Assembly (NCBI GenBank): GCA_964016885.1
Contig: OZ024747.1
Location: 78,368,001-78,432,000, forward strand
Reading direction: 5' to 3'
DNA from: Eledone cirrhosa
Lineage: Eukaryota
Length of the DNA: 64,000 nt
Shown: positions 9,722 through 63,395 of the stretch, piece by piece
How the letters are laid out: each line of letters starts with the position of its first letter
Numbering within the stretch: position 1 is the first letter of the stretch
The notes under the pieces: generated by a model
Databases searched by the model: none
What the model saw: the letters and a program-made list of their open reading frames with translations, nothing else
What the model was told of the DNA's origin: nothing
Translations under genes and position numbers: made by a program

Positions 9722-9869
9722 GTGGTAAGGAACCAGATGGACCATAACGCACCAAAGTACTCAATACTTAGGGTAGTAGAGTGGGTAATAGGAACAAGTA
9801 AGACACCGACGGCAGAGCTCAAGCCGTTTCAAAACGGCTTGAGCTCTGCCGTCGGGGTCTTACTAGTTC
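9722..9869 (-). mobile_element. short fold-back insert (38-bp arms + ~70-nt tail), probable Penelope-type remnant
   Basis: 9792-9829 and 9832-9869 are inverted with 2 mismatches; (AT)n flank; same family as 59669-59826. Confidence 0.65.
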
Positions 9870-10000
9870 ATATATATATATATATATATATATATATATA
9901 TATATATACATATATATATATAGAGAGAGAGAAATGTAAGATCCCCACCGCGGCGCCAAGCAGTTTCGGCTAGTATAAATATATATATATATATATATAA

Positions 10001-10192
10001 AATTGTTTCTACTTTTGGCACAAGCCCAGCAAATTACTCCAGTACATTACTGGTACTTTATTTTATCTACCCCCGTAAGGATGAAAAGCAAAGCTAACTT
10101 CGGCGGGATTTGAACTCAGAACGTAAAGGGCCATAACTCTATGCTGCAAAGCATAGTGTCTGACGCTCTACCAATACTGCCAATCCACCGCC
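10001..10192 (-). mobile_element. tRNA-derived SINE (Nin/Deu-domain-like)
   Basis: A-box-like GGATTGGCAGTATTGG, B-box-like GAGTTCAAATCC, core TTTGC.TTTCATCCTTACGGGG, 3' end AAAGTAGAAACAATT; many copies in window. Confidence 0.85.
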
Positions 10193-10481
10193 ATATATAT
10201 ATATAATTGTTTCTTCTTTTGGCACAAGGCCAGCAATTACCCAGTGCATTACTGGTACTTTATTTTATCGGTAATGCACTGGGTAATTGCTGGCCTTGTG
10301 CCTAAAGTAGAAACAATTATATATATATGGCCGAGGTTAACTTTGCCTTTCATCCTTACCCATATATATATAATGAACAATGAAACATACAAGACATATA
10401 GCAATGCTGGAATCTCCATGTTTAACTCTACATCCGTGTACTTTTAATTTTCATTAACTTTCTTACTAGCAGAACGCCGAG

Positions 10482-13400
10482 GGTCCTATCTTATATGTTC
10501 TCTGGTCCATGGACCCTATCCTATATATTCTCTGGTCCATGGACCCTATCTTATATGTTCTCTGGTCCATGGACCCTATCTTATATATTCTCTGGTCCAT
10601 GGACCCTATCTTATATGTTCTCTGGTCCATGGACCCTATCTTATATATTCTCTGGTCCATGGACCCTATCCTATATATTCTCTGGTCCATGGACCCTATC
10701 CTATATATTCTCTGGTCCATGGACCCTATCCTATATATTCTCTGGTCCATCGACCCTATCCCATATATTCTCTGGTCCATGGACCCTATCTTATATATTC
10801 TCTGGTCCATGGACCCTATCCCATATATTCTCTGGTCCATGGACCCTATCTTATATGTTCTCTGGTCCATCGACCCTATCCCATATATTCTCTGGTCCAT
10901 CGACCCTATCCCATATATTCTCTGGTCCATGGACCCTATCTTATATATTCTCTGGTCCATGGACCCTATCCCATATATTCTCTGGTCCATGGACCCTATC
11001 TTATATATTCTCTGGTCCATGGACCCTATCCCATATATTCTCTGGTCCATGGACCCTATCTTATATATTCTCTGGTCCATGGACCCTATCCCATATATTC
11101 TCTGGTCCATGGACCCTATCTTATATATTCTCTGGTCCATGGACCCTATCCCATATATTCTCTGGTCCATGGACCCTATCCCATATATTCTCTGGTCCAT
11201 GGACCCTATCTTATATATTCTCTGGTCCATCGACCCTATCCCATATATTCTCTGGTCCATGGACCCTATCTTATATATTCTCTGGTCCATGGACCCTATC
11301 CCATATATTCTCTGGTCCATGGACCCTATCCCATATATTCTCTGGTCCATCGACCCTATCCCATATATTCTCTGGTCCATGGACCCTATCCCATATATTC
11401 TCTGGTCCATGGACCCTATCCCATATATTCTCTGGTCCATCGACCCTATCCCATATATTCTCTGGTCCATGGACCCTATCCCATATATTCTCTGGTCCAT
11501 GGACCCTATCCCATATATTCTCTGGTCCATCGACCCTATCCCATATATTCTCTGGTCCATGGACCCTATCCCATATATTCTCTGGTCCATGGACCCTATC
11601 TTATATATTCTCTGGTCCATCGACCCTATCCCATATATTCTCTGGTCCATGGACCCTATCTTATATATTCTCTGGTCCATGGACCCTATCTTATATATTC
11701 TCTGGTCCATCGACCCTATCCCATATATTCTCTGGTCCATGGACCCTATCCCATATATTCTCTGGTCCATCGACCCTATCCCATATATTCTCTGGTCCAT
11801 GGACCCTATCCCATATATTCTCAGGTCCATGGACCCTATCCCATATATTCTCTGGTCCATGGACCCTATCCCATATATTCTCTGGTCCATGGACCCTATC
11901 CCATATATTCTCTGGTCCATGGACCCTATCTTATATATTCTCTGGTCCATCGACCCTATCCCATATATTCTCTGGTCCATGGACCCTATCTTATATATTC
12001 TCTGGTCCATGGACCCTATCCCATATATTCTCTGGTCCATGGACCCTATCCCATATATTCTCTGGTCCATGGACCCTATCCCATATATTCTCTGGTCCAT
12101 GGACCCTATCTTATATATTCTCTGGTCCATCGACCCTATCCCATATATTCTCTGGTCCATGGACCCTATCTTATATATTCTCTGGTCCATGGACCCTATC
12201 CCATATATTCTCTGGTCCATGGACCCTATCCCATATATTCTCTGGTCCATGGACCCTATCTTATATATTCTCTGGTCCATCGACCCTATCCCATATATTC
12301 TCTGGTCCATGGACCCTATCTTATATATTCTCTGGTCCATCGACCCTATCCCATATATTCTCTGGTCCATGGACCCTATCCCATATATTCTCTGGTCCAT
12401 GGACCCTATCTTATATATTCTCTGGTCCATCGACCCTATCCCATATATTCTCTGGTCCATGGACCCTATCTTATATATTCTCTGGTCCATGGACCCTATC
12501 CCATATATTCTCTGGTCCATGGACCCTATCCCATATATTCTCTGGTCCATGGACCCTATCCCATATATTCTCTGGTCCATGGACCCTATCTTATATATTC
12601 TCTGGTCCATCGACCCTATCCCATATATTCTCTGGTCCATGGACCCTATCTTATATATTCTCTGGTCCATGGACCCTATCCCATATATTCTCTGGTCCAT
12701 GGACCCTATCCCATATATTCTCTGGTCCATGGACCCTATCCCATATATTCTCTGGTCCATCGACCCTATCCCATATATTCTCTGGTCCATCGACCCTATC
12801 CCATATATTCTCTGGTCCATGGACCCTATCTTATATATTCTCTGGTCCATCGACCCTATCCCATATATTCTCTGGTCCATGGACCCTATCCCATATATTC
12901 TCTGGTCCATCGACCCTATCCCATATATTCTCTGGTCCATGGACCCTATCCCATATATTCTCTGGTCCATGGACCCTATCCCATATATTCTCTGGTCCAT
13001 GGACCCTATCCCATATATTCTCTGGTCCATGGACCCTATCCCATATATTCTCTGGTCCATGGACCCTATCCTATATATTCTCTGGTCCATGGACCCTATC
13101 TTATATGTTCTCTGGTCCATCGACCCTATCCCATATATTCTCTGGTCCATGGACCCTATCCCATATATTCTCTGGTCCATGGACCCTATCTTATATATTC
13201 TCTGGTCCATGGACCCTATCCCATATATTCTCTGGTCCATGGACCCTATCCCATATATTCTCTGGTCCATGGACCCTATCCCATATATTCTCTGGTCCAT
13301 CGACCCTATCCCATATATTCTCTGGTCCATGGACCCTATCCCATATATTCTCTGGTCCATGGACCCTATCCCATATATTCTCTGGTCCATGGACCCTATC

Positions 13401-61827: not shown

Positions 61828-62330
61828 ATAAAATTGAAGAAGTGGAGAATAACATGGTCAACAGTACAAAAAAGGGGATTTATTTGCAGTCTAACAATTG
61901 TTTCACTGATAGAGTTGTCTAAAAATTGCTGAACACTAAAAACAATGCCACTCAATTTTAAATACGATGTCAACTCTATAGATCATCGGAAACTGTGATC
62001 ATCGGAAACAGTTTCCGATGATCTAGTAGAGTTAACATAGTATTTAAAATTGACTGGCACTGTTTTTAGTGTTCAGCAATTTTTAGACAACTCTATCAGT
62101 GAAACAATTGTTAAACTGCAAATAAATCCCCTTTTTTGTACTGTTGACCATGTTATTCTCCACTTCTTCAATTTTATTACTCCAAGATAAACTTACATAG
62201 GAATACAAGTGAAATCATAAAATCGTCATCTACGTAAACCTTGTTGAGTCAAGCAACGCCGTACGCTAAAACTATGCATAATAAGAAGTATTCCCAACCT
62301 TTAATTGAATTACCTATAACGTTATCCTTT
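61828..62330 (+). mobile_element. fold-back insert, ~167-bp arms + ~150-nt tail
   Basis: 61828-61995 inverted at 62009-62176; (TA)n on both sides; hammerhead with long stem II in each arm. Confidence 0.8.
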
Positions 62331-62809
62331 ATATATATATATATGTATGTATGCATGTATATATGTATATATTATATATATATATATATATATATCAGTA
62401 TGTACACATGCACACAGACACATATGTATGTATATATATATATATACACACATATATATATGCATATACAAATGGAAAAGGGAAGAAAAGTTATTTGTTT
62501 GATACATAAATAAAAAGAGAGAGAGAGAGAGAGAGAGAGGAGAGAGAGGGCGGAGAGAGAGAGAGAGAGAGAGAGAGAGCGGAGAGAGAGGGAGAGAGAA
62601 GGAGAGAGAGGAAGAGAGAGAGAAAATAATTGATAGAAAATATTCCAAAGAGATAATATCGAATAATAATCATTTATTGAATATGTAATCTAAGAAAGTC
62701 ACAAAAAAAATGGATAGATAAGTAAATAGAAAGAAATGAAGATATATATTTTATATATATATATATATATATATATATATATATATATATATATATATAT
62801 ATATATATA

Positions 62810-63135
62810 GTGAAAGAGTGAAGAATAACATGGTCGGCTGTACAAAAAGGGTTTTATTTACAGTATTAACAATTATTTCATTGATCAGGTGAGTCTAAAG
62901 GCCGTGATCACTCGAAATTGTGTCACTCGACCTTAAATACAGTGTGTCTCTCTGATCAAATCATAGGAATACATTCTCCAAGAATAACCTGCATGGGAAT
63001 TCTTGCAAACTCGCTACCTATCTAAGGAAACCTCTTCTTGAGTCAAACAACACCGTACGTTAAAACTATCCATAGTACAGAGTACTCACAACCTCTAACT
63101 GGATTACCTAAAACGATAACTTGTTACCCCCCACC
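62810..63135. mobile_element. diverged relative of 61828-62330 lacking the right arm
   Basis: AGAATAACATGGTC..GTACAAAAA.GG left arm joined to TTGAGTCAA.CAAC.CCGTACG.TAAAACTAT tail. Confidence 0.7.
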
Positions 63136-63165
63136 ATATATATATATATATATATACAAATATTG

Positions 63166-63395
63166 GTAGGAAAATGGAAACACTCGGCGTAAGGGGAAGC
63201 TGCTAAAACAGAATGCTGTCGAAAAGGCAGAAATCAGCTGCTAGAAGTGAGTTGAAGAATTGATAGGAAGGAAGAAATAGAACACTTTGATGGCATTTTG
63301 CTGTTTTAATAGCTTCCTTACGGCCAGTTTTACCATTTTCCTACGAATTCTAATACACTCGCGTTTCAAAACTCGATATTCGAGTTAATTTTGTT
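63166..63395 (+). mobile_element. degenerate fold-back insert (~55-bp arms + ~50-nt tail)
   Basis: GTAGGAAAATGG...CGTAAGG..AAGCT..TAAAACAG versus CTGTTTTA..AGCTTCCTTACG..CCATTTTCCTAC; (TA)n on both sides. Confidence 0.6.

Follow-up and report, generated by a model that had tools for sequence, protein, structure and literature searches.

Tailed fold-back insertions attributed to many families of Penelope-like elements in a (TA)n-rich region of the Eledone cirrhosa genome

Ten fold-back insertions in the window

The window analyzed here is a stretch of 64,000 nucleotides of the Eledone cirrhosa genome (assembly GCA_964016885.1, 3.0 Gb; contig OZ024747.1, 94 Mb; positions 78,368,001 to 78,432,000 of the forward strand) that is rich in dinucleotide microsatellites. 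It harbors ten fold-back insertions, each composed of two inverted arms, one of which ends in an unpaired tail, and these insertions are almost certainly of Penelope-like element (PLE) origin. The original prediction, made from the letters alone, had described ten fold-backs with one-sided tails beside microsatellites; a self-BLAST of the window with simple repeats masked recovered all ten at the places given, and 20 shuffles used as the control gave zero or one local inverted repeat. The ten fold-backs are confirmed to be real, and every insert carries a tail on one side only (10/10). As read from the sequence, 16 of the 20 outer ends adjoin (TA)n and three adjoin (CA)n, (AC)n, or (TC)n, the remaining end (insert 9722) adjoining a fragment of a short interspersed nuclear element (SINE).

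The features are given below, with F0 to F8 denoting families, RT and EN the reverse transcriptase and endonuclease, ORF an open reading frame, and pLTR the pseudo-long terminal repeat.

9722 to 9869, minus strand: F1 (Hydra-type) hairpin; tailed arm 9830 to 9722 (minus), tail-less arm 9833 to 9869 (plus); of the family's hammerhead, the 3' half alone is present; family EN in L331 and L338
34816 to 36246, minus strand: F0 inverted arm without a tail, made up of the pLTR and the 3' part of the RT-EN ORF; 99.4% identical to 37148 to 38576
36245 to 38617, plus strand: F0 tailed arm, 5'-truncated; tail of 41 nt at 38577 to 38617; the full unit elsewhere is 4,147 bp
36247 to 38036, plus strand: 5'-truncated PLE ORF; RT with RYVDD, CX4CxxC linker, GIY-YIG/CCHH EN; a single frame change near 36600 to 36660 disrupts the frame
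38641 to 39047, plus strand: F2 (Neptune-type linker) hairpin of pLTR only; tail-less arm 38833 to 38641, tailed arm 38829 to 39047
38868 to 38906, plus strand: complete minimal type I hammerhead motif with CUGAAGA and a palindromic stem III, mirrored at 38794 to 38756 (minus)
49962 to 52001, plus strand: F3 (Hydra-type); tail-less inverted arm 51270 to 49962 (1.3 kb), tailed arm 51742 to 52001, tail of about 90 nt; TA-rich array 51245 to 51749 between the arms
51804 to 51868, plus strand: complete type I hammerhead motif with CUGAUGA and an 8-bp stem I, mirrored at 50064 to 50000 (minus)
54642 to 55103, plus strand: F4, whose ORF-less unit measures about 660 bp and has its hammerhead further towards the 5' end; tail-less arm 54834 to 54642, tailed arm 54839 to 55103
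57229 to 57432, plus strand: F5 (ORF-less 522-bp unit); tail-less arm 57301 to 57229, tailed arm 57301 to 57432; CUGACGA half core
59669 to 59826, plus strand: second F1 hairpin; tail of about 80 nt
59883 to 60532, minus strand: F6, not assigned to a clade, with RT and GIY-YIG; tailed arm 60205 to 59883 (minus), tail-less arm 60204 to 60532 (plus); hammerhead-like, non-canonical core
61831 to 62330, plus strand: F7 (Hydra-type); tail-less arm 61996 to 61831, tailed arm 62007 to 62330, tail of about 156 nt; hammerhead with CCGAUGA core
63162 to 63395, plus strand: F8 (ORF-less unit of about 530–700 bp); tail-less arm (minus) from about 63282 to 63162, tailed arm 63285 to 63395

Some details of the earlier description had to be revised. 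The tail of the insert at 54641 ends at about 55103 instead of 55070, and the arm–spacer–arm layout applies only in part, since several of the ‘spacers’ represent the further 5' reach of one arm (49962 to 51270 is a single arm of 1.3 kb; in the insert at 59881–60532, the arm without the tail extends 45 nt past the 5' end of the tailed one). As had been noted, there is one related pair among the inserts, namely those at 9722 and 59669, which belong to one family (86% identity over 202 nt); the others share no DNA match with each other, three of their ENs being related at the protein level. Arm identity ranged from 76% to 99% across inserts. Fold-back chimeras are a type of long-read artefact, and the reads examined do not span a locus. 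However, an origin of the inserts from misassembly or chimeric reads is scarcely credible: their arms differ by 0.6–24%, their outer ends lie at family-fixed positions, and joints between opposite strands were also present in raw Illumina reads from another study (14 and 7 reads), for F6 as a family and not for the locus in the window.

Nine families, their coding links and their abundance

The ten fold-backs represent nine families (F0–F8), each with hundreds to thousands of copies. Each insert was searched against its own genome, yielding between 263 and 3390 candidates, of which the best 40 were scored and 30 loci were kept; as only the best candidates were scored, these loci are skewed towards tail-bearing, window-like copies. 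Six of the nine families continue 5' into RT and/or GIY-YIG ORFs of PLEs, as the original prediction had proposed for longer copies, and its view of many co-existing PLE families forming (TA)n-targeted hairpins is supported; F4, F5, and F8 are ORF-less. RT plus EN were found for F0, F2, F6, and F7, and EN, the C-terminal part of the ORF, for F1 (in copies from a second genome search for this family) and F3 (L203 and L302). The GIY-YIG domain was reached by 8/30 loci of F6, 3/30 of F7, and 1/30 of F3.

Assigned by linker motif rather than by an RT tree, three of the coding families fit the Hydra type (F1, F3, and F7) and two the Neptune type (F0 and F2), with F6 being unplaced. F1, F3, and F7 feature a CxCx5C linker plus a YIG motif without Cx2-5CxxC, which, together with the (TA)n targets, agrees with the Hydra clade as described in PMC8557442, whereas the F1 and F7 hammerhead cores (UUGAUAA and CCGAUGA) are non-canonical. 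CxxC and CxH occur near the C-terminus in F1 and F3; F7 has DKT, and in its broken copy L168 no CxH was found. F0 and F2 carry a CX2-5CxxC linker before the GIY-YIG domain, a motif that leaves Neptune and Nematis unseparated, and the F6 linker matches neither the Hydra-type nor the Neptune-type motif.

The F0 family includes an open frame of 1104 amino acids (L278) and a 4147-bp unit in a tandem array. Pfam searches gave no match for five ORF pieces of the window nor for this long F0 ORF, and a PDB search gave none for F0. The F0 homologues are proteins of 860–1100 amino acids; among the 18 scanned, six showed a weak RVT_1 match and two a weak GIY-YIG match, and homologue P0004 matches both domains. 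F2 continues into RT and EN in L076 and L291 (RVT_1, E 7e-5), and the GIY-YIG domain of F6 (E 1.2e-5) is the only Pfam match above the cut-off, the other Pfam matches being weak. The coding copy of 3.8 kb in the window, regarded as the key in the original prediction, explains its own family only, as five other families have ORFs of their own. The F0 ORF in L278 also contains a long asparagine-rich insert ahead of the RT, and such an insert was reported in rotifer Penelope families (PMC3846280). A further F0 insertion of 13 kb (L519–L520) comprises a tailed inverted arm, a partial unit, and three 4147-bp units ending at the short end; the three units carry the same early stop, which is consistent with a multimeric template.

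The ORF-less families run head-to-tail into their own start, with units of about 660 bp in F4 (28/30 loci), 522 bp in F5 (L221, L229, and L237), and 530–700 bp in F8 (L342, L344, L352, and L359). Their insertion signature is the same as that of the coding families, and they are likely dependent on enzymes of PLE families. Non-autonomous PLE derivatives have been described, namely non-autonomous Chlamys (PMC8557442) and the non-LTR retrozymes (bioRxiv 10.64898/2026.07.22.740005). At the sequence level, F4 resembles a retrozyme in its ORF-less units, which are arrayed head-to-tail and hold a complete type I motif, but it bears the PLE integration signature itself (two fixed ends, inversion, and (TA)n).

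Miniature inverted-repeat transposable elements (MITEs) or foldback DNA transposons might come to mind for F2 and F1, whose copies vary little in size and contain long inverted repeats, and TA flanks could hide TA duplications. However, the ends are asymmetric and not fixed and symmetric as in MITEs, one-armed copies are common, the centre is different in every F2 copy, and longer copies continue into RT/EN ORFs. Because of these ORF links, the MITE reading is refuted for six families, and for F4, F5, and F8 it is refuted by the head-to-tail units and variable 5' ends, making it highly improbable overall. As for the suggested check of spacer position and tail end, the junctions differ between copies and the 3' ends are bimodal and fixed.

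Exact matches to 24–27-mers, which represent lower bounds, numbered 5142 for F0, 2909 for F1, 2629 for F6, and 2359 for F2 genome-wide. One 24-mer of F7 occurs three times in the genome, twice in the arms of the window hairpin; it is thus a private variant, and no F7 copy count was derived from it. For the four counted families, four occurrences were found in the window (two of them being the arms of one insertion) versus 0.21–0.28 expected from the genome, i.e., a density about 14–20 times that of the genome. The proposed density of one insert per 5 kb therefore applies locally to the window and not to the genome. The inserts are thus clustered locally in the window, as would fit new insertions that enter the (TA)n next to older ones; chained copies in (TA)n arrays were also observed in L068, L079, and L325, and the inserts at 34821 and 38641 lie 23 bp apart.

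The architecture itself has been published: a head-to-head inverted, 5'-truncated copy, a one-sided tail of 30–40 bp, and (TA)n targets were described for EN-containing (EN+) PLEs (Craig et al. 2021, PMC8557442; Arkhipova et al. 2013, PMC3846280), so that the fold-backs belong to a known kind. Further features shared with these elements are partial tandems, the absence of a discernible target-site duplication in microsatellites, and TATA/Inr elements in the pLTR; type I hammerhead motifs are canonical in some of the families and partial, non-canonical, or not found in others. The insertions studied here differ from those described in the two papers in their tails of about 35–165 nt, in the regular pairing of a long with a short arm (91/97 pairs; the tail is not simply optional), and in their many pLTR-only hairpins. 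Recently active Penelope families have been reported for an octopus (PMC13282606).

Fixed 3' ends, paired arms and the proposed insertion mechanism

Every family possesses two fixed 3' ends, giving a bimodal distribution that was obtained with the masked version of the extension analysis, the unmasked version being confounded by (TA)n. The resulting tails measure about 44 nt in F0, 80 in F1, 40 in F2, 90 in F3, 100 in F4, 35 in F5, 40 in F6, 160 in F7, and 50 in F8, thus exceeding 40 nt in F1, F3, F4, F7, and F8 within an overall range of about 35–165 nt. The ends lie in the pLTR, and the long 3' end of F0 is located directly before the ATG. At position-ordered loci taken from exact patterns, (TA)4 directly followed the 3' end in 26/30 cases for F1, 28/30 for F6, and 23/30 for F0, compared with a background of 14% in the same loci and 7% in the window. 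The sequence past the 3' end begins TA-like in 12 located parent contexts, a series with no control set, for which one further anchor mapped to the wrong place and three were not found.

From 112 raw inverted pairs in six families, 15 were dropped (junction above 60 nt, re-used arms, or duplicates), and the 97 cleaned pairs consisted of 91 long+short, three long+long, one short+short, and two unclassified combinations. If the two ends were chosen independently and with even odds, one third of the pairs with at least one long arm would be expected to be long+long (P 5e-13). The 5' ends of the 91 long+short pairs were equal (within 15 nt) in 45 cases, the tailed arm was longer in 26, and the tail-less arm was longer in 20, by up to 1.8 kb (L288 and L292); these 20 pairs indicate that the tail-less arm is not merely a copy of the tailed arm. 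Junctions show short overlaps or fillers, and palindromic centres were seen in some equal-ended pairs (L006 and L008). Minor alleles were common to both arms of one insertion 3–16 times more than between insertions (six families, 104 raw long+short pairs).

(TA)n arrays gather PLE copies in chains, and the arms of the insert at 49960–52000 are split by a TA-rich array of 500 bp; this F3 insert could be two insertions. As a general account, two separate PLE insertions side by side in one (TA)n array are very unlikely and, apart from the 49960 insert, are largely refuted by the strong orientation bias of close pairs (39 outward versus 2 inward; F0: 24 versus 2, F6: 15 versus 0, among the first 100 exact matches each), by the long+short combination in 91/97 pairs, by junction gaps mostly between −7 and +12 nt, and by the variants common within pairs. 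A SINE used as the control showed no such bias, with 2/15 close pairs facing outward.

The severe 5' truncation proposed for these elements agrees with mostly variable 5' junctions, such as the scattered 5' ends of F0, but in two families a sharp 5' boundary resembling a transcription start was found. Among the 2359 exact matches of the F2 24-mer, 1079 retain the parental base before the boundary and 1280 do not, meaning that 54% begin on that one nucleotide. In a sample of 30 position-ordered matches, 16 begin at the boundary, each with a different centre, and both arms of the hairpin at 38641 begin there as well. Of 14 longer copies, 12 have a TATA box at −31, in two sequence variants, and one has it at −30, and the boundary is described here as a putative transcription start. 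For F1, 26/30 sampled arms begin at or past a TTAGTT motif, including 12 that start no more than 5 nt from it. Hairpins consisting of the pLTR only, 150–650 bp in size, make up many of the insertions.

Our results suggest that each insertion is probably the outcome of two reverse-transcription events, initiated at two fixed RNA sites on one RNA source and joined end to end. According to this proposal, the GIY-YIG endonuclease would nick both strands of the (TA)n target, and each 3'-OH would prime on pLTR RNA, at the distal site to give the tail and at the proximal site to give the tail-less arm, priming probably being aided by 2–6 nt of TA-like sequence. The two cDNAs would stop independently and then be connected by microhomology end-joining. 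Priming in the 5' pLTR would let both cDNAs run off at the transcription start, which would leave hairpins of a fixed size and without a promoter (in F2 and probably in F1); these resemble MITEs, yet each would be made anew. The machinery would also act in trans to move the ORF-less tandem units F4, F5, and F8. The chances appear evenly balanced for the wider proposal that the start sites are coordinated (one per nicked strand), that the head-to-head hairpin is the normal product, that ‘strong-stop’ run-off hairpins give rise to promoterless MITE look-alike families, and that retrozyme-like ORF-less tandem units are integrated by the same machinery.

In L1 twin priming, two primers from two target strands are used and the products are joined by microhomology, giving an inversion without duplicated 3' ends; unlike there, both arms here copy the same 3' region. 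The Poseidon PLE of Anolis was studied in vitro (Frangieh et al. 2024, PMC11167929): both strands of AT-rich DNA were nicked and extended, and RT started at two sites bounding the tail, without a strand difference in the start site and without homology at the start. AT-rich targets are common to both systems, and the two start sites and two nicked strands agree with the mechanism proposed here; by contrast, that study leaves inverted insertions unaccounted for, and the ends found here lie in the pLTR. The origin of tandem and inverted tailed PLE insertions was called open in PMC8557442 and is partly addressed by these in vitro results.

Within the frame of PLE insertion, the inverted arm could alternatively stem from a single nucleic acid that folds back and primes itself, the tail then remaining after the endonuclease resolves the intermediate. 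The former step, on an antisense template, was proposed in PMC3846280, and the origin of the tail from EN-mediated resolution in PMC8557442; 45 of the 91 pairs ending at an equal 5' point, some of them at palindromes, and variants common to both arms are in line with it. However, 20 of the 91 tail-less arms hold 5' sequence that is missing from the tailed arm and yet are without a tail. Since each arm thus has sequence missing in the other, neither is a plain copy of the other, and self-priming appears unlikely as the explanation for the insertions at large, although it may account for part of the equal-ended class.

Several points weigh against the proposal of two reverse-transcription events. 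The mechanism is read from finished insertions rather than from intermediates or RNA, and because the pairs come from the best 40 of 263–4093 candidates, copies that carry a tail and resemble those of the window are over-represented. The equal 5' ends (45/91), some with palindromic centres, fit fold-back self-priming equally well, and the variants common within pairs could result from later gene conversion between arms. Pairing of different sites and short TA matches (without a control) are invoked here, unlike in the Poseidon system (PMC11167929). An untemplated cap G was not enriched at the F2 boundary (G in 270/1280), the F1 boundary lies inside hammerhead stem II, where RT stalling offers an alternative to a transcription start, and no autonomous partner of F4, F5, or F8 was identified.

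What is added beyond the published architecture are the two fixed ends with long+short pairing, the independent 5' reach, the within-insertion variants, and the run-off boundary. No account of the long+short pairing rule, the long tails, or hairpins from run-off at a transcription start was present in the literature searched; subscription papers and supplements beyond it may bear on this. The thousands of young copies in this genome discriminate between insertion models, and the long+short pairing, the independent 5' reach, and the promoter run-off are checkable predictions for the existing in vitro system. If true, the reading of two coordinated start sites would explain the origin of PLE tails and inverted repeats and give predictions at the base-pair level for an in vitro test. 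Moreover, in genome annotation, short PLE hairpins will pass for MITEs or unknown repeats, and the PLE load of microsatellite-rich animal genomes would thereby be understated.

Hammerhead motifs and neighboring sequences

Hammerhead motifs were scored with a type I descriptor (shuffle mean 0.4). Complete canonical motifs were detected in two of the ten inserts (38641 and 49960), in both arms of each, and partial or non-canonical cores in six (34821, both F1 copies, 57227, 59881, and 61828), whereas the descriptor found no core in the inserts at 54641 and 63166. All cores face outward from the insert centre. The claim that over half of the inserts carry outward-facing hammerheads is thus correct for full or partial cores (8/10), but not for complete canonical ones. 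Among the family loci, the canonical motif, a putative ribozyme, was present in 28/30 for F2, 28/30 for F3, 12/30 for F4 (loci long enough), and 2/30 for F7; F0, F1, F5, and F6 have non-canonical or partial hammerheads, and none was found by the descriptor in the F8 loci. Among the ORF-less units, only F4 has the complete type I motif, most or all copies of F5 and F8 being without it. No hammerhead model appeared among the 150 Rfam matches listed for the window, nor on two family regions; the matches obtained were hairpin look-alikes.

The idea of a ribozyme-bearing population yielding double-stranded RNA (dsRNA) was partly overstated, as most inserts lack a complete ribozyme and a hairpin transcript would pair over the motif. 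For the hairpin at 38641, the predicted fold has −286.5 kcal/mol, with the hammerhead motif inside the stem. If transcribed, such insertions would still provide long perfect dsRNA stems of relevance to A-to-I editing and small RNAs.

The F1 core reads mostly UUGAUAA in long copies (L313–L340, around 1486–1590), with a long stem II, corresponding to a change from C3-G8 to U3-A8 that affects both partners. U3-A8 in place of C3-G8 is a functional variant of the hammerhead core. In F7 (L151–L180), the core is CCGAUGA in 17/30, CCGAAGA in 5/30, and canonical in 2/30 loci; as judged from these cores, a young subfamily has spread with a probably inactive ribozyme. The 5' ends of F5 (8/30 loci) and F6 (about 6/30) cluster at TATA-like points resembling hammerhead cleavage sites. 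Ribozyme cleavage was not accepted as their cause, since TA microhomology explains the clusters equally and neither family has a canonical core.

Hammerhead motifs outside the fold-backs were found at 34259 (minus), 56811 (plus), 60935 (plus), 34504 (plus), 55764 (minus), and 3231 (plus), three of them being complete by the descriptor; where (TA)n is close by, they probably belong to PLE fragments with a single arm. A candidate tenth hammerhead-bearing family, absent from the original prediction, occurs at 52256–52389 and 53007–53203, with complete type I motifs at 52297 (plus) and 53195 (minus); its two fixed 3' ends, reached by 27 and 18 matches in sampled loci, are separated by 81 nt; at 52256–52389, a tail-only arm is joined head-to-head with a tail-less arm. 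Positions 62811–63129 represent an older, one-armed F7 copy. Mobilization of the tRNA-type SINE (55,292 exact matches) by PLEs was considered and found to be unsupported, with 22/141 ends TA-flanked, pairs in tandem, and the outward bias absent; in the window, a symmetric fold-back at 10195–10328, flanked by (TA)n runs, is formed by the 3' end of this SINE. Positions 10485–27345 are occupied by a satellite of 16.9 kb in which a 30-bp unit is repeated 562 times with 95% matching and one minus-strand frame is stop-free.

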